DNA from: Vermamoeba vermiformis
Taxonomy: Eukaryota
Reading direction: 5' to 3'
Length of the DNA stretch: 64,000 bases
Assembly: GCA_045837725.1 (NCBI GenBank)
Contig: JBEWZL010000163.1
Coordinates: 62,001 to 126,000 of the forward strand
Positions 1,465 to 28,610 of this stretch are shown piece after piece. The notes below the pieces were generated by a model. The model did no database searches, was not told where the DNA came from, and saw only the letters and a list, made by a program, of their open reading frames with translations. The position numbers and the translations under genes were made by a program. Every line of letters begins with the position of its first letter. Within the stretch, counting starts at the first letter, position 1.

Positions 1465-4400
1465 ATGCCTAAAGTAACGATTGAATTTAACGGCAAGAGG
1501 TAAGCATTCCTTCCTTTTAGTTACTCCCGAGTGCTAACGACTGGATGGTTGTACAGCTACGAGCTCGAAGTTGACTTTGAAGATTGTTTGGAAATATTTA
1601 AATATCAAGTAGAATCTGTCACTAATGTCGAGGCAGCCAGTCAATATTATGACACGATTGATCCTCTCGAGGTAAAATTTCCACAACGAAGTTGACAAAA
1701 AATTATTCTTGAGCGCAAAAAATTCTAATTATAAGAATAAATCCTATTATTGAATTTTGCATCGTGTTCGTTAATTTTAAAAATGTCTTTAGAATCCGGC
1801 AGCGCTAATGAAGTACTTGGTGGAAGAGGTACGTTGCACCTGTTGCTGTCATTTAATAATAATTCAACGATTATTAATTAATATAAGGGCGCTGTATTAA
1901 AACTAAGTAACACTCCCGTGCCTTTCGAGCGAAACCTTCCTCCCATCCAAGGCCCTCCACCCAGTCAAGATCAAATTCAAGGTACACAACGTCTTTAATT
2001 AATCATTTTCTATTGTTATCCTCTAACGCCATTAATCAGAGTGGCAATATTCGTGCTCAAAAATCTTCTTTGACACGCCAATTGAGCAGCCGTCGTACAA
2101 AGCCAAAGACAAGAGTAATACCAATTCATTCATATTCATAGCACAGACCTCGTTAATAACATATCCCACAGTCATTTGTCACGCGTGTGCCTCAACGTGC
2201 CAAATGCCAGGTACCACAATAGCCCGTGCCAATCGTGACCCGTTCGTTTGTCAGTGCAGCAGCATTGAGGGCCACGAGTGCTTGTTCGCACCAAGGTACT
2301 ATAGGATCGTATATACTGCCACGAGGACATATGTTAAATATACCCCTCTTAGATCTAGCACCAGCATTGAACGAGTCGTGGATCCGCTTCGTTCAGCAAT
2401 GATGCAATCAATGCAAACAGCGAACAACCAAATCATTGCGCGCGTCCAAAGTCACGTGCAGCAACAGCAACAAACGCGACAATTGCAAGGCAAAGAGATC
2501 CAGTTCGCTGGTAGAATTGAAGCGCACATTGACGGTGTAAAATTGTACGAAGACCCCGAGTTACAAGTACGTGATTTACGCACAATACCTTATTTACTTA
2601 CTGTGTGACAGAAAAAAGCACGTGCATTGATTCCCGTTGAAGATTTGACCATCGCAGCGAACAAAGCAATCGCTGAACGAAAAGCAGCGCGTGAATCGAA
2701 CACGTTCAAAGACGAAGACTCGCAGTTTAGAAACGGCACGCAAATCGATCACGACTTCAGAGACGAGTTTATGATTCAAATGCTGCACTGGTTCAAAAAG
2801 GATTTCTTCGAGTGGGTCAATGAGCTGCCGTGCCACGCATGCAAGGTACGTACTAAAAGCTTCTTATTAAGCCAATGGTCTAATCTATTACAGGCCAAGA
2901 CGAAGGGCGTTGGTCGTGCTGAACCAGTCGGTGAAGAAAAAGGCAATCTGGCATTTATTGTCGAGCTTTATCAGTGCACTTTCTGCAATGCAATCACTCG
3001 ATTCCCGCGCTACAATCACCGTAAGTTACTCGCCAGCAACACCACAGTAGTAGTTTGTTAACCCTTGTTTTCAGCGGGTCGATTGCTTGAGACTCGTAAA
3101 GGTCGTTGTGGTGAATGGGCTAATTGCTTTGCGCTGATGTGCCGCGCTATGGGCTACGAGACACGCTCAGTGTTTGATTGGACAGATCACGTCTGGGTCG
3201 AGGTAAGTGCTACATCCATTCTCCGCTTCATCAGCGTGCTGACACCTCGTGCAGATCTACTCAGAAAACAAGAAGCGCTGGATTCATTGCGACAGTTGCG
3301 AGGCCAAGTTTGACACGCCGTTGTTGTACGAAGTTGGCTGGAACAAAAAACTGAGTTATGTCCTGGCATTTGGAGGTACGTACAGTGTGTTCGAAGTAAT
3401 CAGTCACTGTATTCTAATTTATCGTCACAGCGCACGAGGTCGTAGATGTCACTCGCCGATACACACGTGACTGGACAGCGGTCAAACAACGCCGCACTGA
3501 AGTAAGCGAAGACTGGCTCGCACGAAACATCACAGCGGTGAACAACAACTTGTTGATGCGTCTCCCTGATCCTGCCATGCGCACTGTGATTGTGCAGCGA
3601 AGAACAACTGAAGCCAAAGAACTCGAACAATTCGAGACTCTGTCACGTGACAGCAAGAAAGAGGAAGAAGAGGGTCGAATTTCTGGCTCTACTCAGTGGA
3701 AAGAACAGCGCGGTGAACTAGGCAACCAAAAGCCTGCCACGAAGAAACCTCAATCGAGCCACATTCCACAGACAAAGATGATTTTATTGGACACTTCCAA
3801 CCTGGACGTTGTGTTCGCGAAAATTCAACAATTCAATCAAGAGCTGAGTCAAAACGAAGATACCAAGCATGTCGCTTTGGACGCAAATGACGTTGCGCAG
3901 TTGAAGTCCCTTGTTGACACGTTGAAAGACAGCGCCAATGTAAATAAGCCCATCAACAGCGCTGCTTTGGATACTATCGACAAGGCTTTGAAGAACTGGC
4001 CAATCAATAAGATATTCCCTGGTACGTATTAGCACTCTTAGCAAATGAATTGTGCTAACGTTGCACAGTGTTGGACGTGACACGACTGGTCCTGACAAAC
4101 GACAGCGGCAACAAACAGCTCTGTCAACGATCTCCTTTTGGTGGCAAAAGTAAGCTCCCCTTTCATTCTCAATGATTGCACCAACAATGCTAATCGTCAC
4201 GCAGAAAATATCTTCGAGTTCGTGCTTCAGCTCCAGTCCAGCTTGTCGGCCAATCAACTGCTCATGTTGCGATTTTTGTGCAACGCAATCGGAGCAGAGA
4301 ACAGCAAACAAGTGCTCAAGGGCTACTTAAACGAAGCTATTGACGCGCTTGTTGTGGTCTCCAAGTCTGAGCAAAAAGCAATCAAAGTGAACTTGGCCAC

Positions 4401-5943: not shown

Positions 5944-6451
5944 GCCGATCATACTCGTAAGCTTTGATGTATACTCATCGGTACGAAATAAATTTTATTT
6001 AGCGGCATCGGACATATTCCCGTAACACAGCGGCGACGCCGAAAACTGAGAATGAGTTCAACACGGAATAAATCACCTTTCTAGATTTATCGTTGGAAAA
6101 ATCGAATCTTCCTAAGCCAAATAAGAGAATTTCCTGGCACGTGATCGTGGAGAACCTCTCGGAAGTGCCTCCGGTCCCGAGACGCGTACGTACGTTCATC
6201 TGCGGTTATTACTAACGATAATATTACATTATTCTCATCTGTAAATCGTATACGCATCATGGATTACACTAAATTAAATTGCTTAATTAGTAGCTGTCAC
6301 GTACACAAACACTCAGTCGTTCATGAAAGGTTCAAAATTTTGGAATAACGGAATTAATTGGAATCACCGTGTGCGTGAATTTGGCTATAAAACATAGAAA
6401 CACCCTCGTTTAATCAGTCGATATTAAATTCGAAAAGTCGAAAGGACACAG

Positions 6452-8220
6452 ATGTCGATCTTAACTATAGATCCGTTCAAACAAAACCCCTCCCTCGAGA
6501 GTCAAACTATGTCATTACCGCCCGACACAACCCTTGATACGTTATTCCACGTTCTTCTAAAGAAGTTGAAGATCGAGGGTATAGACTCGAAGCCTTGGAC
6601 TCAAAAACTTCAAAACAATTTGGTCATGAACTTGGGCCTGCTCATGCGTCTATCAGAAGAGGCTGTTAAAAAGTTGGAATTGCCCCTCCTGATCCAGGAT
6701 GAGTTGATAAAAATTATTAAACAAGATCCGTTGGCCCTTGTACAACTCTCCAATGAAAAGGTAATAATTTTAAAAATATCCTATCAATTTCCGATGCTAA
6801 ATTCAATATACTGCAAGATCAATCCGCCCCTTGGTTGTCCGTTTCACGTTCCCAAGGACGCCAAAGCACCTTCACCTGCCTCTTCCTCTACTGATGTGCG
6901 AGAGGTCCGAAAATCAGCCTCTCAAATGCCCGTTGCAACTTCACCGCGAGAACCAATGACCCAGCGGGCCGAGAGTTGTCCCGTTCTTCAAGTTGAAACT
7001 CGTGACAGATCTTCGAGCATTGGAGCACATGAACACGTTGGCTACATTCCTAAACATCAAATTTGGGTTCTTGATAAATCTCAACGCGACATTCTCAAGA
7101 AAACTTGGAGCGACATTACCAAAAAACAAGGCGATCACTTAGTAAATCTGTTCGAGTAAGTATTCCGAAATGTTTCCCACAAGTGACTTCAGTAAATGAG
7201 CTCACTTGTGAACCACTTTGTATTCGCGAATCATATTACTTAATGTATATTCCGATCAGTAACTTCTACGGCAAGTTCTTCGAGATCGACCCTGCAGTGA
7301 AGCGTCTCTTCCACGAGAAATCGATGCCCTATCAAGCGCGCGCTCTGATGCAAATGGTTACAATGTTAATGAAGTGCATTGACCGTTTAGACTCACTCAC
7401 ACCGCATCTCGAAAAACTAGGTAAGCTAACGACCAGTTCAAATCCTTTCAGTAATACAATATCTGGAGTAATTACGCGAGCGGTACAATTTACTGAGGCA
7501 ATTTACTCGACACAAAACTTAAAATTCTCTGAACGAATAAGCTTTTCAGTGAAACTCGTTCCATATTTGTACAATCTTGGCACATTGTTGTGTGCGATAT
7601 TAATAGATTCACAACAGGAGTCTCCCATCTTATCTACGGAGTCGAAGTTAAAGACTTTCAATCGTGGGCCATCTCCCTCGTCACCACCTTCGAGGCTGTG
7701 CTGGGCAAAGAGGCATTCGGCAAGACTGAAAAAGATGCGTGGATGTCAATGATTGCCGGAGTTTCGTCCATCATTATCAACAGCTACGACGCTGCACGAG
7801 CTGGCAAGTCAGGTTTTTGCGAGGTCTCTTTCGGTGGCAAGACCTTCAAGAAGTACTGGTGCGCTCTCAATCACGAGAAATTAAGCATTTATCGCGACAA
7901 AAAGGTAAGCTCCATTCAACCACTTTGAGTTTGGCTCTGGATCCAGTCTCTAACCTACTTTTTTACAGCAAACCAAGCTTCGTTGCGAATTCCCTTTGAA
8001 GGAGTTGAATGCCGTTGAAGTTGAGGACTCGGGCGTTATCAGTGGCCCCACGCCAAACATCCTCAAAGTAGATGCGGAGAACGATGACATCTACATTGCC
8101 ATTAGCAGCGAAGAAGAGATGAAAAGATGGAAAGAAGAATTCTCCATGAGAATCAAAGCTATGCAACGCGTGCTTACGTTGGGCGAGAACCACAAGAACT
8201 CGTCTTCAGCAGATGAGTAA
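6452..8220 (+). CDS. SAM-like domain + CP motifs + globin + PH domain protein (start at 6452 or 6509)
   Basis: Spliced globin LDKSQRDILKKTW..NFYGKFFEIDPAVKRLF..YQARALMQM..LEKLG|VSHLIYGV..AW. A PH domain follows: KSGFCEV..FKKYWCAL..IYIAISSEEEMKRW. Confidence 0.85.
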
Positions 8221-8440
8221 TGAATTCCGAAAGAACCTCTTGTAAATAGCTAACATTTTTGCCTGCTTGTCCAATGAGACAAGTTTTTGTATTTGTAAAT
8301 ATGCGATTAAACGTCGTTCATTTAGTCAGCGAAACAATGTTTGAAATAATCAAATCATCTGTCACATTTGCTCGGTGTACAACAATAGAAAGATATTATC
8401 ATCAACCTTAAAAATTATAATACACTGACGTCGTCCCAAA

Positions 8441-10571
8441 ATGGCAGAGAGCCTTCAGCAACTGCTCGAGCAAAAAGAGCGAGATTTGGAACTTGCTGCC
8501 CGTAAGTAATTGACACCGTTAAAAATCCATCTCATAATATTATGTTACCTCGAGAAAACGTTAACTTTATTACTTGGTCGCTTACACACGATTATTTTAA
8601 TACCAATTTTCGCCAATAAAATTCGATTCTAATAAAATATTTATCCATAGAATATGGCACTGCCTTATTAGAAGAAAATAAACAGCTCAAACAAAAAGTG
8701 AAGGAGTTAAAAGAAAAGGTAAAAGACAAATTTTTTATGACAACTCGCTGATCCCAGCTCCTCTTTGTCGTTTAACAATGCCCAGATACTATGTTAATGA
8801 CATAAAATCGGTTTTCATTTTTTTGTTATTCAGACGGCCAGTATGGAGATGGAAGGAAGTTATGAAATGAAAGAGCAAATCCAGCTTTTAGAAGAGGCAA
8901 ATAAATTATTGAAGAGCAAACTTACTATTCTCGAGAGCAAAAATGGCGATTTAGAAGCCGTAAGTATCCTCATAGCGCGGCGGATCAAATATTAATTGAC
9001 CTGTCAATTTCTCTGCTCGTGCTAACATGATACCCAACAGAAAATTATCCTCAAAAATGCACAAAAAGAAGACTTGGCTCAAACTATCGACGAGCTAACG
9101 CGAAAGCACAAAAATGCTGAAGAGCGGATCGCAATGTTGCAGAAAGAACTTGAAAATAATAGTACAGCTGGTACTATTTACGACCTAAATGAACAAGTAC
9201 GAGTGTTTGGATAAGTCATGTTAATACTAACCACTTATATCAGTTGGAAATGCAAAAAGAAGTTATTCAAGATCTGCGAGCAAAACACGCAGAGACGCAA
9301 CGAGCAAATATTGAACTCACCAAGAAATTAGGTAGCAATACATTAATCATTCGATACTATCACTAAACCTTATATAGATGATGCAACAAAGAAGATTGAT
9401 CAATTGAATTCAACGCAAGTTTCAAATGAGATAGATCCAGCGCTTCTCGAAGAGCTAAAAGAGCTGCGACAGTCTAACGCACAATTCAAACGCGAAATTA
9501 AAGAAAAAGATGAGATCATTCAAGAGTTGCAAACAAGACCAGCAGAACCACGACCGACAATTTATCAACGCACCATTGTCGAAGTACCGTCTTATGTTCC
9601 TGTGCCTGGTAATTCAGACCCTGCTTCTGAAGGCCATTCAAGTGGCTTTGAACATGTTAATAACCCTGATTCAGATATTACTGTGCAACCTAAACATGAC
9701 ATTACAACTGACCCGCAGACAAGTTCTGACACTTTGACACCTGTGACAACTTCAGCTCCTAGAGTGGATGCCAACAATATCAGCAATGAAATTACAGTCG
9801 ATAGTACCGGCGATTTATTCAACACAACTTACGTAGCGAAGAGTGACGAAGACAGAGCCGAAGTTGTTGTTGCGACCAACGGCCACGTGAAGAGTGAGCC
9901 ACTACCTATTCAACAATCCACAGAAAATGGTCATACCGAAACCAAAAAGACAGAAAAAACACCGCCGTCATCTCCAAAAGCGTTGTATCGTGACCCTCGA
10001 GTACAAGATCTGGCATCAAAACTTGCCGAGGCCGAACGACAACTGAGCATCAAATCAGATGAAGTACAACGTCTGTCTCTCAAGCTAGCCGAACTAGCTG
10101 AACGAGCATCTACGGCGCCTCAAACAACCATCATCAACCAAGTTGTTCCACCCAAGAAAGAGGTACATGTCACTCTTTTGGTTCTGACTTGTCTAACCTT
10201 GCCTCTTAGGGATTCCTTGTCAAACAAGGTGCCCGCATTAAGAACTGGAAGCGAAGGTTCTTTTTCCTCGAATCAGACTTCTTGTATTACTCCGAGTCGC
10301 CGAAGGTAGTGTCGTGTGCACGCAACTCATCACAGCATTAGCTAACAGTCATTCGACTTAGTCGCGCTTTGTAACCTTGGGAATGATCAAACTCGACGGC
10401 TCCGAAGTAGACCAAGCCATAGTGCCCAACAGAGCGTACGTTATCGCCGTGAAAACAACCGACAGGACGTACTACCTCTGCGCAGAAACCGAGGAAGACA
10501 TGCACGAGTGGCTCAAGGTGCTCAAAGAAAAAGTTGAAGAGATTGCGGAAAAGAAGAGAAATGAGAAGTAA
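8441..10571 (+). CDS. CC1-box coiled-coil protein with C-terminal PH domain (candidate dynein adaptor)
   Basis: Spliced N-terminus LLEQKERDLELAAQ|YGTALLEENKQL, long heptad coiled coil, and a low-complexity linker. The PH domain reads KKEGFLVKQGARIKNWKRRFF...YYLCAETEEDMHEWL. Confidence 0.85.
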
Positions 10572-11136
10572 ATTGAACCTCGCAATCAACCCGTTGTAAA
10601 TAATAAAGCCTCGATGTAAAATCGTTTGTGGATCGTCAGTCATTTGCCGGGTATTTTTTTTAAATAGCCGCTCGACTCCATGACGGTACCAAGTTCAATG
10701 TTGCTTGCCTATAGGCTGTAATATAATTGGCCTCGTATGAGGGTATTGGTTCGGTTTAAAAATAAGTACGAGGTTTTTCGTGCTCGTGTTACGGAATTGG
10801 TTTTTGTCTCAACCAAGCGAATACAGTGAACAACAGTGCTGTATTGTAAATTATATTATTATTTATGTGTAAAATATTTATTTGTACAAAGTATTTATAA
10901 ACGAAACGGTAAGCGCACATCGGCTATTTATTCGGAGAGGAAGCCATCAAGCGCGCTAAAACCGGAATATATTGCAATAATGTCACTAAAATATTAATAA
11001 TAATTATTGAACGAGCAAACGGGCTCCCCGCTAATGAATAATGAACTCCGTTAAAATAATAATACAAAATCATAATTGAAATTGAATTACAAGGTTAGTA
11101 ATAGGAATATTTAGGTCAAGACCAAGTTAAAAATAA

Positions 11137-13632
11137 ATGGCCGACCACGAACCAATTCCAGAACTTGAAGGAGAAGAAGGAGGCATGGGGATCCTTCAAA
11201 TCGGGTGGATCATCTCTGGCGTTTTTGTTATTGCCTCCTGTATTTTATCTTTCAAAATGATATATGACCATTTGAAGAATTATAACGAGCCGAATTTACA
11301 AAAGTAAGTGTTTGATAGATCCCAACGGCTATTTGGCGGTTTTAGCGAATTGTTTCTTTTTCTCACCTAACCTTCAATATCATCTGTATTATTTTAAAAT
11401 ATTTTAACTATTATTATGGCATCAATATCCGTACTGATTTAATTGACAATTACAGGCACATAGTTAGAATTATATTTATTGTCCCTGTATATGCTATAGA
11501 CTCGTGGCTGACACTCGTATTCGAATCCTGGTACGTGCAAATGCTCAAATAATAAGAATTGTTTCATTTCACGAATACTTCAAGCTCGATCAACCCATCT
11601 CTGCGCGCGAATTTCCTAGCTTGACTGACTTACCCTAATTCACAGGGCACTATGGGTGGATCTTATTCGAGATTGCTACGAAGCCTACGTCATTTATTTA
11701 TTCTTCAGACTGCTCGTAGAATTTTTGTTTGGCGAGGACAACTTGCGCGCAACACTCTACACCAAACCCCTGGCACACCATCCCATACCGATGTGCTGCT
11801 TGACTTATAGTCCTGGTGGTACCTTCTTGCATCGCTGCAAACAGGCCTTGGTCCAATTCATTATCATTCGTCCTGCTGGTGGTAAGCTAATGCTCGATCT
11901 GATCCTCGTCCCGTGTTGCCTCTTTAACATTTTTTCTCGCAGCTGTTGCAGCTTTGATTTTGGATTATTTCGGCCTGTACGGCAACGGTGACTTCTCCCC
12001 TCAATATGGCTACTTGTATTTGACCATTGTTGGTAAGCATTTTTCTTAGTCCAAGTGACCGTTACGAAAAATTAGATTTGACTCATCTGTCGTGTTATAG
12101 ATAACATTTCGTTCACTATCGCGCTGTACTACCTCGTGTTGTTCTACGAAGTGTTGGCTGAGGATTTGAAGCATTACAAGCCCCTGGCTAAGTTCTTGGT
12201 CATCAAATCCGTCATTTTCTTTGCTTTCTGGCAGGGAATCACGATTTCACTGTTAGTCAGCTTCGGTAAGCATTTTATTCGTAGCGATTAGCTGTTGGCA
12301 GCATATTTTGAGTTTTCATTTCTGTGTCATTAGACGACCTCGAATCTAACAGATTTATTTTCAGGTGCTATTCCTCACGGATCAGTTTGGGCCGAACATC
12401 TCCAAGCGTTCCTCATTTGCATTGAAATGCTTGGTATTGGCATTGCCTTCTACTACTCATTCAGTGTCAAGAGATACAAGGGTGAAGGTGCACCTTCGTT
12501 CGCTCCGCCCGTGCCTCGTGCCCAAAAGAGAAGATTTTTCAGCTCAATTGCCAGTGTGGCAAGCATGAAGGACGTGTTCCGCGACACCGTCAACAGCATT
12601 GCCCGTGCACCGCAAGTTTACGTTCATATTGCCGGTGAGTGTTAGTTTGAACGCAAAAAGGCGATTGAATTTTTCCGCTTCCGCAATATCAAGAATGACA
12701 AGGCGGCAATTTTAATAATTCCTGCATCAGAGATTGCGTGCGTGACGGCTTAATTAACTGAATCAACTTAATTTTTAGGTTTCTCGGAGGGATCTATTGA
12801 AGACAAACGAGCGCGAATCGTTCGTGAGGGCTGGCTCCAGAAACGCGACAAGGACGTATTCAAAAAGTGGCATCGTCGTTACTTTATGCTACTGAACAAC
12901 CCCGAGGGTATTGTCTATTACAAGACCAATCCATGGGAAGCTGCGAATCCTGAATCCGCTCTTTCGTTGCAAGTGAAAGGCTTCATCGACTTCCACAACC
13001 GTAAGTACTTAATGCACGTGCGGAGTTATAAACCATATTAATGGCCTTAAACAGTTGTCCATATTTGGAAGACGGAGCCCGGAGAAAGTACTCGCGTCAA
13101 GTTAAAGGGCAACAATACAATGATTTCAATTGAAGTCAGCAGGCCAAAGAAAAAGAAGAATAGAAAGTTCTACCTCCGCGCCGAGACTAGCGATGCTCAC
13201 GAATGGTTCGACAACATCAGAATTGTCTTGAAACAGATGGAAGAAGGTCTTTTGCCCGCTGCCCTGCCGACAGGCACGCATCCAGAGCAACAGCCGCACG
13301 AACCTGATGACGAAGAGATGGTAGAGCTTGATAACTTGGATGAAGAGCATGGACAGGACGCTGCTGCCGATCAAGACGATGTTGACAACGACTCTGATTA
13401 CTCCGACGACGAAGAAGGAGGCTTGGGTCCTCACGATGGCCCGAGACCGGTGTTCTACGAGAATGGTGGAGAGCTTCAAGAGGTCGTCGTAGATACGCCG
13501 CCAGCAGCAAACAAGCCTATAGAGACATCAAGCGACGATGAAGGTGGCTACGACTTCAACAAAACCGTAAAGCGCGAGGACTATGGCGATCTAGAAGACG
13601 TTCCGCTTGATGAGGCACGAACTAAGAAATAA
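11137..13632 (+). CDS. TMEM184 / organic solute transporter alpha family protein fused to a PH domain and acidic tail
   Basis: [65 protein letters not shown] and LICIEM. The PH domain reads VREGWLQKR..KWHRRYFML..FYLRAETSDAHEWF. Confidence 0.9.
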
Positions 13633-13834: not shown

Positions 13835-16800
13835 ATGAATCGTGTAAATATATTTATTTTTGTAGCATTATTTTCGCTTGTATTTCTAGATGCGTGCTTG
13901 GGAGCAGCCATCCCGAAAGGAAACATCTCTCCAACGAGCATCACCGCAACTCCTAACCAACAATTCACCTTCGCCGTATCATTCGACAACGTCGGTGACG
14001 CAATCGCTTACGGTCCCTTCCTGGATGTTCTTTTCCCGTACGATCCGTCAGTCTCTCCGTTTACAGGAGTGAACGTAAATTCAGCAACTAGCTATCTAGG
14101 CATTAGTATTCAACCTGTTATTATGACTTTCACGGCTCTAACGCCTTGCTTCTACCACCCATACCTTTTGAATACTACAGGTAATTGACGGCAACACCAA
14201 AAAATAAAAGCTAATACATTGCTAATGGCATAATTTAGGTGGCGAAGATACGGTTTGTGGTACCCCGGGCACGAAGCTTTACTCATACAGATTACCCTTC
14301 TTGTCGTACGCATCTTCGCAGCCCACCATTGATCTTTCTCTATCGGCGTCAATTTCTCAAAACTGTAAGTCGTAAGGCGCTAATATAAGCGAATCATTTA
14401 TTTATCACTTCAATCGCTAAATGACTGCGGCAATCGCTAATGTACATTTTCCTCATTTAGCCGCCACTATTTCGGTGCGAGGAGGTTTCACTTACGTTAC
14501 TCCGGACAAGCCCGTAACGCAAGCATCGCTGATTAGCGCATGGAAGAACGCTACAGTATCGGCTTCGGTAGCGAAACCAACACTGACGTTTTCGTCATCG
14601 ACTTTCGGAACCGATCCTTCAACAATTTACAGCTGTTTCTTCAATTTGAACTTCGCAACGGGCACTCTTGTTGTGAATGGCACCGCTGTTATATGTAAGG
14701 AGTTATTTACAATTTTGGAAAAAATCACGGAAGTAACGATCCGCTCTTTCTAGGGTTGCCTTGCGGTGTGCACTTTATTGGATTTGATGCTGCTAGCACG
14801 GGAAAAAATGTAAGAATATTCTAGTGCCATTGCTTCACTTTCTGACATCTTTTAGCTTGCTTACAATAACGGCGCTTTCCAACCAGAAACCGGATTCAAG
14901 GATCAAGTGACCGTTGATTTGAATGACAACCCTAATACTACCGTGCAATTGAACAACGTCTACGTGGCGTTTCAATTTTACTTCTCTTACGATGAAGTAG
15001 TGCAATGCTATGGTGGCGGCGTTGGAGGTAGACCAATAGTCATTCCTTGGAGCGTGGGCATTCCTTATTATATTTACGATCCTACATGCAATTGCATTAA
15101 GGTAAGATAAGAAATAGTTATCTGGGAACAACAAATTTGTTATTTCCAAATTTGGAAAAATCATGCATTTACCCTTCTTTTGCAGTACTACAACCCTGGC
15201 ACTTCTGTTACGACCTCTGTGTCTCGGTTTACGATCGATCGAACTATGGTGGATCCAGCGACCCCCAGCAGTAAGTTTGGTTGGGTAAAATTCTAGCTTA
15301 ATTAATTCGTGCACAACAGCAATCAAACCTGGAGACACTTTGCAGAACAGAGCCAACGTTAGCTTTTATTTGGCAGAGTCACACACTTGCATTGACTCCC
15401 TAACGTGGGCTGAAAATGGCTTGGTTGATGTTCCAGTCAGTGGTAGCGCATCCGTTAAAGTAGATGCAACCACTTTGACCTTCACCCCTGCCACGAATGG
15501 AAATGGCGATTTTACCTATGATATCAGTAACGGATTGGGGCAAAGTCCGTTGACTCCGCCCTATTTTTTCGAGGCTCGGTATCAAACAACAATTGAGGCA
15601 AACGCAGATCGAACTCACGGATCGACCGTCAGCGCTGTAACTGAGTAAGCAATCTATAAGTGGTATCAAAAGTTACTAACGAGGGTAGTTTCTACTTTAA
15701 CGAAGTCAATTGCACGACTGGAGAGGTTGTTAAGCCCATCCACTTGACCGCTTCAAATTCCTTGCGCATCACTTCTGGAACATTAACGATGACGCAGTAC
15801 GCCAAGGATGGAGCTTGTAAGTAACGTCTCAACCAGAACTCCTTTTCTAACGTAGCCAGTGTGCAACCCCTGCTCCACGACTATCAGCCCAACGACTTTG
15901 GTAACCGTGTCCGTCAAGTACACGTTGCCAATCTCAACCTTCAAGAATTTGAAGTTGGATATCTACATGCCTTATCCACCTCTGCCAGTCTCCACAATGA
16001 CTTTCGAGTACGTAACAGTACTTAATCCGAACGGCCTTATTAACAAGTTAAAACAGCGATGTTATCGATGCTAATCCGCCTGCTTTGTATCACTGCAAGT
16101 TTGGTTCGGGAGAGACTTTGAGATCTACGTATGGAGTCGTCCCTACTGTGTCCTCGGATGCATCGAACAACCGCGTAACCCTAACTTACCCTGACTACTA
16201 CGACTCATCGTCCGCAAGCACCACGACTCAAATTCTTTGCACGTTCCAAACCGCGGACACAGACTTCCCTGATGAGCTTCCTGTTGCCGCTCAAATGGCT
16301 AGCTTCGAGCAGAATGTTGGCACATCCACTACTTACACTACTTACGTTTTGTCGCGGCCTGGTAAGCTTGTTGAGATTTATTTTGCAACAAAGTACTGAT
16401 AATAGTACAGTAATCGGAAGTGCCAACATATATAAGGGCTTTATCGCCTCCAATAACCCCCTTGCTTCGATGACGACAGGCTCGATCTCTTTTCGAGCCC
16501 CCGGTACATCGGGTAATAGATGGAACGCAGCTACCACACCTATTACTTCGACGTACTTCTCGAGCAATCAAGCTAGCTTGACATCAAGCGTCTCGCAAGT
16601 TGACGCCAATGATCTGGTCACGGTCATCATAGTCATTAACAATCAAGGCTCTTCACCTGCTTATGACGTAAAAGTGTCCGACGTTGTTCCCTCTGGCCTC
16701 GTTCAACCCAGCGGAGGCTACAACATGCGCGTCACAAATGGTGCTGGCACAGCGCTCACAACTAGCGGAAATTTGTTTTCTGGTGGCTTGACCATCACTC

Positions 16801-19800
16801 GTGGTACCAGTCCACCAATGCAAAGCAAGGCTAGCACAACAGGAGATAATATCATTGTCATCACCTACGACCTGCAGATTAACTCAATCTCCCCTGGCTA
16901 CACAATTACCGTCGACTCTGTAACACTCCTTGGCTACGCGGCTTATGTGGGTGGAACACAATACGCTAGTAACATCAAGTCTGGCACGATCACGATCGAT
17001 GGTGCCGTTCCATCCATTCAAACGCCCGTCCTAGTGTCAAGCGTAAGATCAACAACTTTTTAGTTCTAAGCTGATACTGATCTCATTTTTAGTCACTCAC
17101 GGAGACTGGCTCCAGCAGATACTCAAGCTCATATACTGACTTTGCACTGGGGGAGTCGTTCATATTGTCCGTGACAATGAAATTCCCCGAGGGAACTACG
17201 AAGTCTACTTACTTTGAGTTCGCTTTTCCTACAGTTGCCACGGGTGTTATTCAGTACGCTAACTCGACCATTAGCTACGGTGGTAACGTCTCTCCTGCTA
17301 CATCGACCGTATCAAGCGACAGTTCTACTGTTAGAATTACCTTTGGTGATGTGACCAACGTTGCCGGTATGTGTAACAAGTAGCGCTTTGAATGTGGATA
17401 CTAATTTTGTAATAGATGACACTGTTTCTGCCGACGACGAAATCACAATCCTCATTGCAGGCATTGTTGCTGGCACTGGCAATGCTCAATCGAGCACTGT
17501 TCGCACTAGCACTGGATTGTTGCAATATGGCATTCAGAACTCCGCTGTCCAAAATCTGACCACTACTTTTGGCTGCGAGCTTGTTGAACCTGCCCTGACC
17601 ATCTCACGCACGTGGTCCATGACCAGTTCATCCAATGCCGATGACACCATTACGATGACGATTGTTGTGCAGCACAACTCTGGAACAACTAACTCTGCTG
17701 CCTTCAAGTTGAACATCACTGACGCACTCGGATCTTACCTTGTCAGTAACTCCGATGCCACGGCTACGATGGGCACCATTGTGCAGCAAGATCCCTTACA
17801 AGTTTCAATCCCCATCTTCACCATCGGCAGCACTACGACCATCACTTACACTGCCAAGTTAGTGTCCAACTTGGAGCTCAATCAACAAGTTGTCAGCACT
17901 GCCTCGCTTGCCTACTACAGTGTTCCTGAAGCCTCTTTGGCGAAGAGTTACAGCGCGTCTTCCGCGACCACGCAGAACTCGGCAAAGGCAAGCATTGCGA
18001 CTGTCTTAATCGGCACTAGTCTTGCAGAGACCACCAAGAGCAAATATTCCACTTCGATCGATGACTTGGCAATTGGCGAAACGGCGACCATTCAAAGTAC
18101 TGTTACACTTCCCGAAGGCAAAATCTCGAGCGCTGTTCTTACGTTCAAAACGCCACAAGTGACTGACGGCGTCATGGAAATCGTCTCTGCTCGTATCTAC
18201 TCAGTTGGTACCAGTATTTCTGGCTCTCCTACGCCAGCCGTCAATGAAGCAGCAACAATCACGCAAGGAACTGCATCCGTTCCTGCCACTGCCACTTGGA
18301 ATTTGGGCAATTTGGTCAATACTCCCGATAACGTTGCTGATGCAAACGACAAAATCGTCATCGAAGTCGTTGTAAAGCCGACCGTTGGCAAAGCTCTCCA
18401 AAGCAGCACTGCTCGCTCGTTAACAGCAGCCCTCGCTTCTTCATTGACAACTACTACGGTCACCGCCATTCAGTTTGAAATTGTTGAACCAGTGAAGACT
18501 CTTGCTAGAACTACTACAATGACAACTTCGAGCGATGGTCACGATCTTATCAACATCACGCTTACAGTCGGTTCTGGCTCTTCTGACAACGCAGCCGCCT
18601 ATCAAACCGTTGTTACGGACGATGCAAGCTCTTCGATGACACTAGTCGTGGGTTCTGTCACAGTGACAGGCACTGCTTCGTACACCGTTCAATCAGGCAA
18701 TACTGCTGGTGATACATCACTTTCAGTGCTCATTCCTAAGATTCTTTCTGGTGCATCGAATATCGTGATCACTTACCAAGCACGAATTGTCGACAACATT
18801 CAAGCAGCCACTTCTGTCGTTGGTACTGGCTCGATGATCTACTATTCCGACACTGACACAAGTGCAACAAACGCCAAGTCGTACACACAAACAGCTTCCA
18901 ACACTGTCGTGTCCAAGACTCCTGCCATTTCAATTGTCGTCGCTAGCACGTCGCTCTCCGAGACGGGTGCAGATCCTGGCAATTCTGCCATACAGACTTT
19001 GGCTATCGGTGAAACTATTGCCTACACGATCACTTTGACGCTACAAGAAGGTTCATTGAGCAGCACTCAAGTCACTTTCACCGCTACTCAAGTCGCTACC
19101 GGAACTCTCGAAGTCCTTGCTGCCAACGTTTCCTTCGTTGGTTCTTCCATCACCGGAAACCCTCCAACTGTTGGACAGACTGCCACTGTCTCTACTGGTG
19201 GCTTGGGAACGAGCTCTATCGCCAAATTCATCTTGGGCAACGTATACAACGACCCTGATGACACGCAGAATGCTCAAGACACGATCCAGTTCACTGTTGT
19301 TTGTCGTCCGTACCTCGGTTTGGCAAGTCAGACTGGAAATGCCCTCACGAACACAGCTGCCCTCGCCTATGGTAGCTCTGGTTCTGCTTCAGCCTCGAGC
19401 CAAGTGAAGATCTACGACGCTGTTCCTCTTCTTATTTCCAGGACCTCGAACATCGCAACGAGTGTTGATGGAGGAGATGTCATTTCAGTCACGCTGACTA
19501 TTCAGCCCGATACTACTTCAGGAAATCTTGGTCCTGCGTATTCAGCTGTAGTCAACGACTTGTTGGCTCCTGATATGAGCGTGGTCATCGCCTCAGCTGT
19601 CTCTAACAAGACTAGCGCCGTGATTACTACCGGTCCCACATCAAAGGATTTGCAAGCTTCTATCCCTGTCATCCAAAAGACCGATCCTGCTGTCCGCATT
19701 ACTTACAACGTTACGGTGAACTCGCAAATCGAGGCAAGCTCGGTCTCTATGCAAGCAAAAGTGCAGTCCTACACGAGCCCTGATATTATAAACTCGAAGA

Positions 19801-22800
19801 CCTACACTGTTCAGACATCTGCTGTCTCTGCAACAGTGCCAGCAATCGCAACCACCCTGGCATTGGTATCAACCTCCTTGGCTGAAAGTGGCGCAGACTC
19901 CAGCAATGCTTTGATTGAGAACTTGTTCCTTGGAGAAGTTGCCCTCTTGCACCTGACAGTTCAATTCCCCGAGGGTAACACATCGAACGCCGCCCTCAAT
20001 TTCACGGTTCCGCAATCAGCGAAGAACGTCATGGAAATCGTCTCCTCGAAGGTGACAGCCATTGGAGCCAACTTATTCTCCAGCGTTCCCATCGCTGTGA
20101 ACCAAGCTGGCACTGATACTGTTGGCGCTCTTGGAGTTGTGTCATTCACTCAATTCAACTTTGGCACTATCTACAACGCCCCTGATAACACCGTATCAAG
20201 TGCGGACAAGATTACTATCGAATTCCGTGTTAGATTTGCCAGTGGCCAAAGCAATGAGCCCACTGGTACTGCAGTGTCGGTTTCAATGTTCACTGCTTCA
20301 CTTCGTGCCACGACTCCGAATAGCTACCAGTTTAAGCTCGTAGATACCACTCAGTTGTCGCTCATCAAAGCGATTCCCTTGGCAAACATTATCGATGCAG
20401 GCGACATAATCACAGCAAATATCACCGTTACACCGGCCAGCTCAGCAGCAACTGCAGCTTACAACATCGTGGTTACGGATGAACTTGGTCCTTACGTCAC
20501 TGTCCTCACGAACACCATAACCAAGTCAGACGCCAATGCCGTCGTGACAGTCAGCGGTACATCCGTAGTTATTCAACTTGGTGTGCTATCTGGTACCAAC
20601 AGTTTGATCGTCACGTATCAAGTCCAAGCAATTGCACAGCTTGAAGTGCTGACAACGATGACTTCCGAGGCCAACATGACGTATTACTCCAACTCGGATA
20701 TTCAGAATGCCAAGGTCTATCAAGTGACGAGCCCCAGCTTTTCTTCAACCAGTTCTCGCGGCTCTGTTAGCAGCTCTATCACAGCAACATCGCACAATGA
20801 AACAACCAAGGCCCAGTACGACACCAACGTTGAAGATATGATTCTTGGAGAAACTGCCACAGTGACATATGTAGTCACTTTCGCTGAGGGTAGAACAACC
20901 GGAAGTTCATTATCCGTTGTTTCTTCTGAAGCTGCTGGCCGTGTCGTAGAAATTGTCTCCATGTCAGTTCTCAGCGTGGGCTCAAAGCTTTCATCTTCCG
21001 TGTAAGTCTGTATTACGATATAATTACATTTCATTTTTTCTAACATTATTTTTGTAGCAATCTCCTGACAACCACTGCGGCTTTGTCTGAAGGAACAGTG
21101 GCGGGAGTCAACACTCGTGCTTCAATGAACTTGGGCGATATTCTCAACACAGCTGACAACACTAACAACGCTAACGATCAAATGCGTGTTACTGTTGTAC
21201 TCCGATTCTGGCATTCAGCCTCTACCACGCAGACTGGCACTGACGCCTTGACCACGATCACATTCAGTGCCGATGCTTACATCGACAACACTACTACAGC
21301 TTTGGAGTTGCTTCTCACCAAGCCATTGATGTTCACCAAAACAGCAATTGGTGTGCAAGACGGACTTGACGAAGGGGATAAGATCAACGTTACGATTGTC
21401 ATTTCTCGTGACAGTAACAGTGCTAACCTTGGACCTGCTTACAAGATCTCAATCACCGATGACTTGTCTTCTCAATTAGTGGTAGTTCCTGGCAGCTTCG
21501 TAACGTCCAACGCCAACGTGGTCAAGACTGAGACTTCCTCAACCACCAACACAGTCAGGTTTGATCTTCCAGTATTGCTCATCACGGACAGTGACGTTGT
21601 GATCACTTACTTCGTCACTCCTATTGTTGGCATTCGCCCCAACACTTACGTGTCTAGCACGGCATCGTACTACTATCAAGCTAGCAACATCAACGACGCA
21701 ACCTCGCCCTCATGGAGCTCTCAATCCTCAACTTACGAGTTCACTTCTGCACTAATTTCGGCTCGTACTACAACTAGCGCGTTAGTTACTGGAGCTGCTA
21801 CGTACAGAGATCCCGAGTACATCACGCTGTCGGTTGGTCAAGTAGGTGTCATCAAAGCAATTTTTGGAATGCCCGAGGGAAATACTACGACTGTTGTGCT
21901 CACTGTTGAGAGTCCGACTGGTCCGGACACTTTGATGGAGATCACCAGTGCCAAGGTTTATTCAAGCGGTTCGAAGCTTAGCTCCGATGTTACGTAAGTG
22001 CAATTTTATGGAATCAACCAGGACTAACAGATTTTAAGTATTACGAACGTTGTTCCTGCAATAACGAACACTTCAATGCCGTATGAATCTAAGGCTGTCT
22101 TTACCTTGAGCTACATTTACAACCAAGCCGACAACATCAAGAACACTAACGACGAATGGGTCGTTGAGCTGAACGTCATATTCCCACTGGAGATTACGTC
22201 CAGCAACATTCAACCTTGCATCACAACCTTCAGTCTGACTTCGGACACTTACAACGTCTCCACTCAAGCTGCATTCCTTCCTGCACCAACATCTGATTTG
22301 TTGTTGGCTCGCTCAAGTTCAATGAAAGACAACATGGATGCTGGTGACTTATTCTCAGCTACATTGACAGTGTTTACCGCGAGTGCTAACGGTAGTGACA
22401 CCTTCAACGTCAATGTCAGGGATGTCCTCTCTGGCTTGGATTACGAGGCGCTATCTGCTCAATTCAGTGAAGAAACAGCTTTCTTGATTGCTGACCCTGC
22501 CGACTTCGTCTCAGAGTTGCCATTCCGCGAGTTCAACAGCTCCGACTACGTGATTCAATACAAGCTTCGAGTCGGTTCTGAAATAGAAGCAAATGCTCAA
22601 ATTTCGGCATTCGCAGAGTTGCACTATCAATCTGGCAACATTGGAGCCTTGGCTAAGAATGTCTCGCTTTCCACGAGAGTATTCACAGCAACTACGGCAA
22701 GTCCTACATACGACTTCCAAGTCTCAACTATGCTCCCCGAGACCACTGAGGTTGCAGGAGTACACCAAGTCACTTTTGGTGAAACAGCTACAGCCACTTT

Positions 22801-25800
22801 TACGATCACATTCACGGAAGGTCGTACTTCAGGCAGCCAGATTTCAGTCTTCGCTAGCCAAATTACTAGTGCTGTGGTCGAGATCCTGTCTCTAACGGTC
22901 ACTCACGTTGGTTCCAAGATCTCGTCCTCAGAGTAAGTACATCGGGATAAATAGGCCTCTTTTGCTAATTATTCGCTTAGGTACCTTTCTACGGTTAAAG
23001 CGGTATTGATCAAGAGCACTAATGGTGTGAATGCCAATGCTACTCTATACCTCGGAGACATTCTGAACACTTACGACAACGTGGTTGATGACAAGGACCG
23101 AGTTACCGTTGAAGCCGTGTTCAGATTTGTGCCCGATGTGAATGAAACTATTGGAGTGACCGCCACGAACTCGATTCAGTTTGACTCACAGACTATCCAC
23201 CATGAAGAGCAATTCTCTATGGTTCTCGTTGATTCTCACTTGACCATCACTGAAGACACGTCAGCTCAAAACGTAGCAGCAGGAGACATCATTTACTTCA
23301 CGATCATCGTGTCTCCTATCGCAGGCAGTACCGGTCCCCTCTACGACATCCAAATTTCCGAAGATTTGCCTGAGCAGCTCAACTTGGCGAGCGCTTCCGA
23401 CTCAGTGGCCACGAATCAAGGCAATGTCGTATCTAGCTTGCGAACTGACAAGTTCACTGTTGTCGTTCCTATCTGGACCCCAGCTGACGGTGATATTGTG
23501 GTCTATGCTGCATGCACTGTCTCGAAGCCTTCAGTCACCGGTAGCAACTTCAATAGCAACGGTGCCACGTTGAGCTACAGGACAGCCCCTTCAGCCAAAA
23601 CTGATAGCTACATTGAACGCGCCGATCAAGCCAGTGCCCTCAACTTCTACACGGCTCCCAGCACTTTCGTGCTTAAAGAGGCAGATCCAAACAGCCGTCA
23701 AGTTGGCTCCATCTTCCTTTTAGAGATTGGTCAGGTGTTCTTGATGCAAGCCGAAATCGTTTTTGCTCGTGGTGTATCTAGCAACACGACACTCGCTTTG
23801 GCCTTGCCTAATGACTTGGCGGGTGCTCTTCAGCCCATTGAAAGCATGATCAACTTCACCGGTGTTGCCGTTGACCAGATCGACTTCAACTACGAGCTCA
23901 GTGACTCCAACAACGATGGCATCAAAGATCTATTCACTGTCCATTTGGGCGATGTGCTGATCGTTGGTAACAACGAGACTCAACCTGTTGACAGCTTGGT
24001 AGTCATCACGTTCGTCACCATCACGAACCGCGTCTCTCGAGACACTGGTGACGTGCTCGCAGCTACTTTGGGCATTACTTTCTCTGGCTCAGCTCCCTCC
24101 ACTGATTCGCTCTCCCTGCAAATCGTTGAGCCAGTGGCCACTAGCAGCACTGTAATCACACAAATCAGCCAACTCTTCGAGATTGACGACACGTTCACTA
24201 CTGTTGTGACCTTGCAACACGAGCTGACGTCTCATTCTCCTTTGTATGAGATCGTCATTCAACTCGCTGGCAATACATCCGCTTATCACATTCTCAATGG
24301 CACAGTAACCACGTCCATCGGTAGGTCATGACTCAATTGTATTATGCTTGCTAACTATGTTATTAGATTCTATCGTCACCGTTGATGCCGACACCCAAAC
24401 AATCTACATTATGAAATATGATGTGGAATCAAACGCAGACTTGGTAGTTACATTCGACTGCGTCTTTGTCGAAGCTACCGTTGGTTCACCAATGGAAACT
24501 GGTGTAATTGTCACGGGCAAGAGTTCTGCACCTCACAGCGATTACTCTGAATTCGACGAGGCAATTGTCTACACCATCGAAGAGAGCTACAGATCACTTG
24601 ACATCAAGCGCCCTGACGTCACGATCTTCGTCTTTGATCCTAAGACTGGTGAACGTCTTGAGAAGCTTGAACTGCCCGTGTCAGGTGAAGGCTACGTTAA
24701 GGCTCTCATCCACGTGCCCAAGAGCTTGGTTCCTACGCTCTCAATTTACTTCGAGTTGGATGAAAAGTTGGCTTTGAAGGACGGCGAACTGGTCACTATT
24801 CAAAGCAACACCACGCTGTACATTGGTGGTTCTGCAACGACACCTCTTGAGCAAATACTCGAGGCCGGTCTTAACGTGGAAAACAACGGCACCAAATTCA
24901 GCATTGCTTTCAACGGCTCAATTGACGTCCCTGAACATCAAGCCTACATTGAAGTCTCGTTCCCTGTCGTGAGACTTAACACCAACAGCAGCGGTAATTC
25001 TTCCACTTCAGCTTGGTAAGTAGATTTATTGACATGATGGAGCACCTAGCTGACGACTATTAGGATTGAATTCCCCGGAACTAACAACACTACGAACAAC
25101 GGGACTCGCACTATTATTCCAGGCGACGTTATCAAGTCGATCGAGCCTGAGTTGACGGTGATTGTCACTAAAGTCGATCCAGTTGAAATTGAAAAGTCTG
25201 GCGAGAACGCAACGATCAACTTGCTCATTTTGCACACTACTAGAAGCACGTACACTGCCTTCTTGGTGAACTTCAAGTTGACATTGCCCGACATTTACGA
25301 CTTTGTTCCTGACACTGTATTTGCTCGTGTTGATAACGAAACGCTTGATAGTAAGTGAATTTATTCGCTATGTTGCTCTTACTAACAAATTTTATTCAGT
25401 CTACGTGAATGGAAGTGATTTGATCGTCAAACGCGACCATTTGAACTTGAACGAGCGCATTGCCATCGAGTTCGTCGCGATTGGCTACAACCCCGAGTTC
25501 TCTTCAACGAGTTCATTGAGCAACATCTACTGCTCGTACACCACGACAGCTGACACGACCACGCAGTTCTCGGTCTACAACCAGTTGTCCGTCTACAGAA
25601 AGATCGAGATTGGTATGCATAGTTTATCCCCCCTTGACGCAGCAACACTTTATCTAACGCTTTCAATAGCCCCTGATGTTGCTGTCTTGGGTCCCTTGTC
25701 GTACTTCCCCACTGACGATATTGCGCTGTCCCCGGTCGAATCAGTCGGAGCCTCGTACAACTTGCCACTGCTGTCAACCTCAAACGACAACTCCTCGTTC

Positions 25801-27887: not shown

Positions 27888-28610
27888 GCATTGTAAATTA
27901 ATAAAAAATAATAACCTTTTGTGCAACTTGGCTGAGACAATTATTTATTTTTAGTTTTTTATGCAGCTGATGTACACACTTCTCGGTAATTTACGTGGAC
28001 ATGAGTCGTAGAGTTCAAAAGAGAAAAACATAAAACAGCGCACGGTGGTAGCCAGAATCCTGCATCTGTCCGCGGACGAACTTGTTTTTTCTGAGACAAT
28101 TCCCAACAACAAACCAGTTTTAATTGTTACGAAAAATCTCGAATTTCTGTAAGACTCAGGCTAATTATTGGCGTGCAGATGGAGGTGGATTTAAATAGGG
28201 TAGTTGTAAAGCTCTGTAACGGAACGGTAATAGTGTTAACAATACATTATAATTATCTGGAAATTAATCTTACAGTTGTTCAGGCGTACTGGTTGTGTGA
28301 CTGGGTGGATTGGGTGTCTAGAGCAGGGTCTCGCGTGTCAAAGTTGCTGGATCGAACCAGAATGGCCCCTCTAACAAGTGTACTGTAGGAAAATATCACA
28401 AGGTAGCTAGAGATGAACGTCCGCAGACAAGACAAAAATAGAAAATGTCCCTTTGCCCATCCGCGGACTGGCATCGTCTGCGGTTCCAATTGGCCTTGTC
28501 CATGGCTAAAAATTATTTAAAGCAGAAAAAATTGGTGCAGTGCAATTACAATTGTCTGAACAACGCCAGCCCTCTCACTTCACTTCCGAATCCAATACGT
28601 ACGACTCAAA

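Follow-up and report, generated by a model that had tools for sequence, protein, structure and literature searches.

The window, a 64,000-nucleotide stretch of DNA from the amoeba Vermamoeba vermiformis, carries on its forward strand, at 8441-10571, a gene of eight exons with 1590 nt of coding sequence. Its start ATG lies at 8441, with an in-frame TGA upstream at 8426-8428, and all seven introns run from GT to AG. The parts of the gene are given below, together with the transcript runs (X1, X2 and X23) and the AF2 model, made for the ortholog P0001, that bear on each of them.

8441-8501, + strand: exon 1, with the start ATG; it encodes aa 1-20 plus the opening base of the Gln21 codon, contains the N-terminal half of the TRAK-like CC1-box segment and ends ...LELAA.
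8502-8650, + strand: intron 1, 149 nt, GT..AG, interrupting the CC1 box within the Gln codon (run X1 contig and run X23 reads).
8495-8501 and 8651-8658, + strand: the AAQYG codons (aa 19-23), which span intron 1; the motif is aligned with AARIG of TRAK2 and of the TRAK representatives.
8651-8718, + strand: exon 2, the remainder of the 45-aa TRAK-like segment (spliced contig).
8834-8959, + strand: exon 3, coiled coil (its joints occur in contigs of X1 and X2; helical in the AF2 model).
9041-9196, + strand: exon 4, coiled coil (spliced contig and AF2 model).
9244-9331, + strand: exon 5, coiled coil (spliced contig and AF2 model).
9378-10162, + strand: exon 6, which takes in the last part of the coiled coil, a break and the helix starting with ALLEEL, then the disordered linker, another short helix and the initial residues of the PH domain (spliced contig and AF2 model).
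10210-10305, + strand: exon 7, PH strands beta1-beta3 including the 3-phosphoinositide motif (PF00169, 27.2 bits).
10362-10571, + strand: exon 8, the remainder of the PH domain, the C-terminal helix and the stop codon (PF00169, 37.1 bits; joint 10305->10362 in X1 and X2).

The gene is real and transcribed, and encodes a protein of 529 aa. A single 1474-nt contig of run X1 contains seven of the seven splice joints, including 8501->8651 (149 nt skipped, GT..AG), and contigs of run X2 contain five of them. In run X23, which comes from a relative whose sequence is 90-95% alike, intron 1 is skipped in three raw RNA-Seq reads; these have TC for CC before the 8501/8651 joint, a synonymous difference that keeps Ala-Gln. 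As the joint across intron 8502-8650 is present in transcripts, the junction encodes LELAAQYGTALLEEN. The initial annotation had predicted this splice from the letters of the window, had read from it an AAQYG motif and had proposed RNA-seq of the 8501/8651 junction; the X1 contig and the three X23 reads confirm the splice, which creates the motif at aa 19-23, and the same motif occurs in P0001. The public annotation of a near-identical genome mis-models the gene, its protein P0002 being an intron read-through fragment, and the architecture is therefore invisible there.

The family has very few members in the collections that we searched; it is rare and, as it seems, restricted to amoebae. A protein homologue search with exon 6 returned P0001 only (66% identical over exon 6), the same search with P0001 yielded in addition just the fragment P0002 and two matches to the PH domain alone, and residues 1-372 of P0011, the ortholog from Rhizamoeba, found only P0011 itself. 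Scanning metagenome contigs with the family alignment gave 596 stretches that fit the pattern, of which none was confirmed. Twenty-three long ORFs of the window, scanned with Pfam, yielded no taxonomic marker. Since the Rhizamoeba protein is the single distant ortholog, conservation within the family rests on two lineages. Our literature search found no published description of a CC1-box coiled coil combined with a PH domain, in line with the earlier remark that this architecture was not recognised among characterised adaptors.

By sequence comparison, aa 1-45 share homology with the CC1-box segment found in animal TRAK/HAP1 proteins. Alignment of the family with TRAK by hhalign gave a probability of 93% (E 3.4e-7) over 45 columns with 44% identity, and a rerun on the N-terminal parts gave a real score of 50.5, against a mean of 13.3 and a maximum of 22.6 for 150 column shuffles and 19.2 for the reversed query. 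Within the segment, 20 of 45 residues of the window protein are identical to TRAK, including 12 of 13 consecutive ones. Among non-PH chains in a PDB sequence search, TRAK2 (9dgv) was the sole match with E < 1e-3 (2.8e-4), its alignment starting at residue 6 and covering the CC1 box, and no PDB chain of another CC1-box adaptor was found at E <= 10. A search of 1.84 billion representatives returned 12 proteins at E <= 1e-3, namely seven fragments from close kin, the Rhizamoeba ortholog, two TRAKs and two unrelated repeat proteins; both TRAKs, which match HAP1_N at 1e-110 and 2e-119, align from query residue 6. The AAxxG pattern occurs once in aa 1-225, and at least once in 1.8% of 2000 composition shuffles. 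Identity between the window protein and P0011 is 21/45 in aa 1-45 and 45/99 in the PH domain, with 28/126 in the rest of the coiled coil and 22/120 in the linker. Taken with the shuffled and reversed controls, the alignments support an N-terminus that is TRAK/HAP1-like specifically, above the coiled-coil background. The HAP1_N search suggested in the initial annotation gave a divided answer: the full profile (PF04849) scored 20.5 bits against P0001 (E 3e-4, aa 5-218 on profile positions 69-284), below the 33.9-bit gathering cut-off, while the local 45-column homology stood by hhalign. Exon 1 alone, with its 20 aa, matched HAP1_N at E 0.0038 (16.9 bits).

Two other readings of this N-terminus have to be weighed. 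The protein could work without a motor, as a scaffold or tether: a coiled-coil dimer held on 3-phosphoinositide membranes by its PH domains, in which the TRAK-like segment acts as a coiled-coil trigger, as a dimerisation site or as the site of a partner other than LIC. We judge this to be rather unlikely, given that the CC1 boxes are in register in the TRAK match, which scores far above its shuffled and reversed controls, that the 45-aa segment is about twice as conserved as the remaining coiled coil, and that a motor site at the N-terminus with a cargo site at the C-terminus is an adaptor layout known from published accounts. It does draw on the sub-threshold HAP1_N score, on the ATDIG that P0011 has at the AAxxG site (the second Ala is Thr), on the two repeat proteins with similar E-values among the 1.84 billion representatives, and on Dictyostelium, where a search with TRAK1 and Milton is described, in the relevant passage of PMC5064798, as giving generic coiled-coil matches only. 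With TRAK as the closest family, a TRAK-like two-motor or kinesin adaptor also comes into question, its N-terminal coiled coil bringing kinesin-1, alone or together with dynein, to 3-phosphoinositide membranes. The TRAK coiled coil is described as binding kinesin-1 too, and kinesin-1 co-precipitates with TRAK1 residues 100-360 in an experiment reported in PMC10011603; the kinesin site on TRAK is loosely defined, and the homology found here is limited to the 45-aa CC1-box segment. The Milton/TRAK domain (PF12448) is absent from the Pfam matches of P0001 at E <= 10, whereas the TRAK representative P0016 has it, and we consider a kinesin adaptor very unlikely.

A two-stranded coiled coil, parallel and in register, is predicted for the N-terminal ~220 aa. 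The AF2 model of P0001 has helices at residues 2-124, 127-174 and 187-219, with a predicted coiled-coil break at 175-186, followed by disorder over 220-379, a helix at 381-421 and then the PH fold. Prediction of a homodimer from the N-terminal 232 aa gave a parallel, in-register pair with a score of 0.42, against 0.00 for the best of three controls, a pass that may partly reflect likeness, since long coiled coils are frequent among solved structures. The mark for this score was reached by 21/30 solved one-chain pairs and 0/23 solved single chains in a microbial benchmark, and by 17/29 pairs and 0/30 single chains in a eukaryotic one. Contacts were i-to-i across residues 5-177 and 189-218, with contact agreement of at least 78% and partner pLDDT of at least 76 in the dimer runs. 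The coiled coil of about 220 aa and the disordered linker described in the initial annotation both agree with these models, in which helices extend to residue 219 of P0001 and pLDDT is below 50 over the region that follows. Four further features fall in this part of the protein.

9443-9457, + strand: LLEEL (aa 189-193), candidate Spindly motif (ALLEEL, 9440-9457), directly after the predicted coiled-coil break.
9515-9529, + strand: IIQEL (aa 213-217), a second match, to the relaxed JxxE-hyd motif, where the last N-terminal helix ends.
9536-9988, + strand: disordered linker, rich in Pro/Ser/Thr (about aa 220-370; pLDDT < 50 over 220-379 of P0001).
9992-10114, + strand: another short helix or coiled coil (~aa 372-412), immediately ahead of the PH domain (residues 381-421 are helical in the AF2 model of P0001).

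[quoted passage not shown] The coiled coils of the three orthologs (the window protein, P0001 and P0011) contain no QxxH/Y (CC2 box/HBS1). LLEEL fits L-hyd-x-E-hyd, of which at least one instance arises in 44% of shuffles; it is present in P0001 and in the fragment P0010, and the stretch that holds it is missing from Rhizamoeba P0011. The earlier suggestion that ALLEEL may be a Spindly-like motif is weakened by this. IIQEL is likewise at chance level, as JxxE-hyd has at least one match in 95% of shuffles. Both the absence of QxxH/Y and the unconserved Spindly motif speak for a scaffold or tether. From the box to the break, the coiled coil measures ~155 aa, shorter than that of TRAK; in TRAK1, the Spindly motif is placed by a published account between residues 360 and 400. 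The linker has the lowest conservation in the protein, with 86/151 residues identical to P0001 and the 22/120 given above for P0011.

The C-terminus is, judged by motif and profile, a PH domain of the TAPP1/DAPP1/Grp1 type with a 3-phosphoinositide motif. PF00169 scores 71.8 bits (7.7e-20) in P0001, and in the window gene exon 7 (27.2 bits) and exon 8 (37.1 bits) each exceed the 25.1 cut-off, which answers the PH profile search proposed in the initial annotation and bears out its claim of a PH domain with a 3-phosphoinositide signature. That signature, K-x-small-xn-K/R-x-R-hyd-hyd in beta1-beta2 (PMC4746654), is found in KQGARIKNWKRRFF at 10222-10263, where KQG-ARIKNW-KRRFF fits K-x-small-x6-K-x-R-hyd-hyd. 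The top PDB sequence matches are TAPP1 (1eaz, 8e-12) and DAPP1 (1fao, 2e-9), with myosin X and Grp1/cytohesins, and TAPP1 1eaz is also the top Foldseek match. The beta1-beta2 loop matches that of TAPP1 in length, and an Ala aligns with Ala203, the site that gives TAPP1 its PI(3,4)P2 selectivity, and thus hints at a preference for PI(3,4)P2 rather than PIP3; the Rhizamoeba ortholog has Ser there. Of the PIP3-type PH domain claimed earlier, the 3-phosphoinositide subclass stands, and the domain itself appears more TAPP1-like, that is PI(3,4)P2-like, than PIP3-selective.

An N-terminal coiled coil with a C-terminal PH domain is also the layout of the cortical dynein anchors Num1 and Mcp5, and the amoeba protein might by analogy be placed at PIP3 or PI(3,4)P2 patches of the plasma membrane, holding dynein there to pull microtubules and position the centrosome or nucleus. 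Although 3-phosphoinositides arise first at the plasma membrane of cups, as published accounts describe, we find a cortical anchor improbable, with no Mcp5_PH among the Pfam matches of P0001 at E <= 10 and a PH domain that is TAPP1-like and not of the PI(4,5)P2 type. Num1 and Mcp5 are not known to carry a CC1 box.

With a TRAK-like rod tip and a lipid-binding-type PH tail, the protein may link dynein directly to signalling lipids. When products of PI3-kinase appear, the dimer would bind the membrane through its two PH domains, the membranes envisaged being, for example, those of just-closed macropinosomes or phagosomes; once bound, it would present its CC1 box to the dynein LIC, and this contact would couple the membranes to minus-end-directed transport. 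In Dictyostelium, macropinosomes are described as carrying PIP3, then PI(3,4)P2, then PI3P in succession. We regard a CC1-box dimer on 3-phosphoinositide membranes, as a candidate dynein link, as the best explanation overall, and hold it tentatively, at a little short of an even chance. The protein is a credible variant of the CC1-box adaptors, its function being read from its sequence. BICD2 and TRAK activate processive dynein-dynactin on their own; the amoeba protein may do so too, or may instead act as a short recruiter or adaptor in the manner of JIP3, or depend on a second adaptor. The stronger term of the initial annotation, activating adaptor, is only partly sustained: the splice, AAQYG, the coiled coil and the PH domain speak for it, and the lack of QxxH/Y, a Spindly motif at chance level and the ATxxG of Rhizamoeba speak against it. 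In its boldest form, the proposal would make this the first directly lipid-reading dynein activating adaptor, a TRAK-type CC1-box dimer with a PI(3,4)P2-selective PH domain that loads dynein-dynactin onto macropinosomes or phagosomes seconds after closure, without a Rab or protein receptor, and whose TRAK-type box predates animals; we think this form unlikely.

Known dynein activating adaptors contact their cargo through Rabs or other proteins and, to our knowledge, nearly all those characterised come from animals and fungi. If the dynein-link reading is true, the combination of a CC1-box coiled coil with a 3-phosphoinositide PH domain would provide a minimal, lipid-gated connection from PI3-kinase signalling to minus-end transport, and would offer a handle on the inward movement of fresh macropinosomes and phagosomes in amoebae. 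The 45-aa homology to TRAK/HAP1 further bears on evolution: in the boldest form of the proposal, the occurrence of the gene in tubulinean amoebae would place the origin of the HAP1_N/TRAK-type CC1 box before animals. For Dictyostelium, the part of PMC5064798 that deals with its search reports no clear HAP1_N ancestor.

Compared with known systems, the protein shares with Spindly, BICD2 and BICDR1 an AAxxG near the N-terminus of a parallel coiled coil, but their PDB chains are not matched in sequence at E <= 10, it has no QxxH/Y and no conserved Spindly motif, and its PH domain stands where their C-termini have RZZ-binding or Rab6-binding regions. In the ESM Atlas, N-terminal fragments of Spindly are the first look-alikes, by language-model features, of P0001 (0.93) and P0011 (0.91). 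Of 256 features, 126 and 120, respectively, are shared, fewer than the 170 typical of true family members, and the look-alikes so provide a lead only; just two of the ten best look-alikes of P0011 belong to the family of the top match. No Spindly family came up in the Pfam scan of P0001, the library of which may not include PF28219. Num1, Mcp5 and ApsA have in common with it a coiled coil, a C-terminal PH domain and a proposed dynein link, but the PH subtype differs, Mcp5_PH does not match and the amoeba N-terminus is TRAK-like, which makes the analogy a functional one only. JIP3 resembles it in a coiled coil much shorter than those of classical adaptors, and its residues 1-185 are reported to activate dynein despite that length (results described in PMC7615804), yet JIP3 contacts LIC with an RH1 domain instead of a CC1 box, and has no sequence relation to the amoeba protein. 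For the PH domain, the closest counterparts in sequence and fold are the C-terminal PH domain of TAPP1 and the PH domains of DAPP1 and Grp1, with which it has the motif in common at an identity of only about 30%. TRAK1, TRAK2, Milton and HAP1 differ from it in several respects: the amoeba protein is without the Milton domain, the QxxH site and the N-terminal extension ahead of the box seen in TRAK, its coiled coil is ~100 aa shorter, its cargo end is a PH domain where TRAK uses Miro, and it occurs in amoebae, not animals. It is alike to them in the 45-aa CC1-box segment, in a dimeric coiled coil, here predicted, and in having its putative motor-binding end at the N-terminus and its putative cargo end at the C-terminus.

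The gene at 8441-10571 (+ strand) comprises eight exons, with a CDS of 1590 nt encoding 529 aa, and an in-frame TGA (8426-8428) precedes the start ATG at 8441. Its seven introns are all GT..AG and 46-149 nt long, several of them with a CTAAC-like branch site. The gene model is as follows:

8441-8501, + strand, exon 1
8651-8718, + strand, exon 2
8834-8959, + strand, exon 3
9041-9196, + strand, exon 4
9244-9331, + strand, exon 5
9378-10162, + strand, exon 6
10210-10305, + strand, exon 7
10362-10571, + strand, exon 8

Public sequencing runs compared with 8300-10700 confirmed all junctions. A single contig of run X1 (1474 nt) has 7/7 joints, 8501->8651 among them, and contigs of run X2 have 5/7; the RNA nature of both runs is a guess only, but the X1 contig is without the seven introns and is therefore transcript-derived sequence. 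In run X23, from a relative 90-95% alike, three raw RNA-Seq reads cross intron 1, with a synonymous TC for CC ahead of the joint. The junction thus encodes ...LELAAQYGTALLEEN... exactly as the initial annotation had claimed. One of two short X1 contigs over 8374-8469 lacks two bases at 8438 in the 5′ UTR, just 5′ of the ATG, apparently an allelic or strain-level variation of the leader.

In the collections covered by the searches, this is a very small family. Exon 6 as query returned one full-length ortholog, P0001 (538 aa; JGI/IMG, Logan), 66% identical across that exon and likewise carrying AAQYG. The NCBI protein P0002 (301 aa) is the same gene of a near-identical genome, equivalent to window 9347-10309, mis-modelled as a single ORF reading through intron 6, in which neither the CC1 box nor the PH domain survives and most of the coiled coil is gone. 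When P0001 residues 1-232 were searched exhaustively with HMMER against 1.84 billion representatives, 12 proteins came up at E ≤ 1e-3: seven exon-sized close-kin fragments, one distant ortholog, two animal-type TRAKs (P0013 and P0016) and two unrelated repeat proteins. The distant ortholog, P0011, stems from a transcript of the amoebozoan Rhizamoeba saxonica (Tubulinea); its 471 aa have the same layout at 32% identity overall, and it was a singleton in the homolog search. A metagenome contig scan for the family found none. The relatives of this single gene family suggest an amoebozoan-like protist as the source of the window. Identity to the Rhizamoeba protein is highest at aa 1-45 (21/45) and in the PH domain (45/99), against 28/126 in the remaining coiled coil and 22/120 in the linker, and the two ends are therefore constrained modules.

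For the first of these ends, three independent searches (Pfam, PDB and the 1.84-billion library) indicated TRAK/HAP1. The HAP1_N profile, proposed as a check by the initial annotation, matched P0001 at E 3e-4, but its 20.5 bits lie below the cut-off of 33.9, so that HAP1_N membership is not reached by Pfam's own threshold; exon 1 alone (20 aa) matched at E 0.0038, and the two TRAKs at 2e-119 and 1e-110. In PDB, TRAK2 (9dgv_a, E 2.8e-4) was the sole non-PH chain under 1e-3, aligned from query residue 6 onward on TRAK2 116 onward, box on box, and both TRAK matches of the large library likewise begin at query residue 6. Profile-profile comparison of the family alignment (A2) with that of both TRAKs (A3) gave a probability of 93%, E 3.4e-7 and 44% identity over 45 columns (4-48 vs 72-116). 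As a control, hhalign was repeated with just the N-terminal regions: the true query scored 50.5, compared with a mean of 13.3 for 150 column-shuffled queries (s.d. 2.2, maximum 22.6) and 19.2 for the reversed query. The window segment has 20/45 residues in common with TRAK, 12/13 in one run, and the Rhizamoeba segment 19/45. The resemblance is therefore more than coiled-coil noise, and is limited to the CC1-box segment. That this TRAK-like start belongs to a kinesin or two-motor adaptor of TRAK type appears very improbable to us: the Milton domain, found in P0016, is absent from the protein.

Excerpts of two preprints describe the CC1 box as AAxxG, the CC2 box/HBS1 as QxxH/Y with a downstream acidic patch, and the Spindly motif as L-hyd-x-E-hyd, lately relaxed to JxxE-hyd and usually following a coiled-coil break. 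The AAQYG box noted initially is indeed present after splicing, as the only AAxxG (shuffle P 0.018); in Rhizamoeba its second Ala is replaced by Thr. QxxH/Y does not occur in the coiled coil of any of the three orthologs. The proposed Spindly-like ALLEEL fared unevenly: LLEEL (189-193) immediately follows the predicted break and is retained in P0001 and in P0010, a third-species fragment, but such a motif occurs in 44% of shuffles, and the stretch is missing from the Rhizamoeba protein, which has LLDEA at 266. From box to break there are ~155 aa, fewer than in TRAK, where the excerpted source places the Spindly motif between residues 360 and 400; according to an excerpt of PMC7615804, JIP3 1-185 activated dynein despite a much shorter coiled coil. 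As a rival reading, a motor-independent scaffold is somewhat unlikely.

In the AlphaFold2 model of P0001, helices span 2-124 and 127-174; after a break (175-186) another helix covers 187-219, residues 220-379 are disordered, and a further helix (381-421) precedes the PH fold (mean pLDDT 57.8, from a shallow alignment of 5 sequences). Two copies of residues 1-232 were modelled as a parallel in-register dimer scoring 0.42 (best of three controls, 0.00), with at least 78% contact agreement between runs and partner pLDDT of at least 76. The dimer mark was reached by 21/30 solved one-chain pairs and 0/23 solved single chains from microbes, and by 17/29 and 0/30 from eukaryotes; likeness to solved coiled coils may partly account for the pass.

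At the other end, PF00169 scored 71.8 bits in P0001 and 27.2 and 37.1 bits in window exons 7 and 8. The closest solved sequences were TAPP1 C-PH (1eaz, 8e-12; also the top Foldseek match), DAPP1 (2e-9), myosin X and Grp1/cytohesins, and KQG-ARIKNW-KRRFF satisfies the K-x-small-xn-K/R-x-R-hyd-hyd motif, which bears out a 3-phosphoinositide-type domain. The PIP3-type label first given to it did not hold up as well. The loop equals that of TAPP1 in length and has Ala aligned with TAPP1 Ala203, a residue that excludes the 5-phosphate and whose change to Gly allows PIP3 binding too (Thomas et al. 2001, as cited in an excerpt of PMC4746654); the domain therefore reads as probably PI(3,4)P2-leaning, with Ser at this position in Rhizamoeba. 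In Dictyostelium, forming macropinosomes carry PIP3, PI(3,4)P2 and PI3P in succession, and PI(3,4)P2 marks the just-closed macropinosome (excerpt of PMC8980073). A Num1-like cortical anchor, another rival role for the protein, seems to us improbable.

Other genes in the window were also noted:

3418-4032, + strand, PUL domain (Doa1/PLAA-like)
6428-8220, + strand, gene just upstream, ending at 8220, with a weakly PH-like C-terminal half
11137-11552, + strand, downstream gene, start ~11137, with Ostalpha/Solute_trans_a matches in two exon-sized ORFs (E 1e-7, 1e-6)
16185-29884, + strand, series of very long ORFs, all on one strand (292, 1216, 317, 302, 458, 236, 258, 604 and 309 aa)
40550-41362, + strand, Sec15 C-terminal region, slightly under cut-off
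48864-50282, - strand, SAM-domain protein
55853-58312, + strand, LRR protein

The PH-like half upstream (PF00169 E 0.0019) scores 19.1 bits, under cut-off, with no Pfam match in the remainder of the gene; if real, it would put two PH-type genes side by side. The ORFs at 16185-29884, with no Pfam match at 1e-5, are possibly one giant gene of a family unassigned by Pfam.

Taken together, the best supported reading is a dimeric coiled coil with a TRAK-type putative LIC-binding box at one end and paired 3-phosphoinositide PH domains at the other. Such a dimer would recruit dynein to PI3-kinase-marked membranes as its cargo and might, most conditionally of all, activate motility. The analysis established the gene, its transcription, the local TRAK homology, the modelled dimer and the subtype of the PH domain; LIC binding, the choice of lipid, the cargo and, most of all, motor activation are deduced from these. 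The sources returned by our literature search, as excerpted, held no published description of a CC1-box coiled coil with a PH domain, and a search for a HAP1_N ancestor in Dictyostelium had given generic coiled-coil matches only (excerpt of PMC5064798). We regard the protein as a candidate adaptor of the CC1-box kind, from beyond animals and fungi, whose cargo module would bind lipid.
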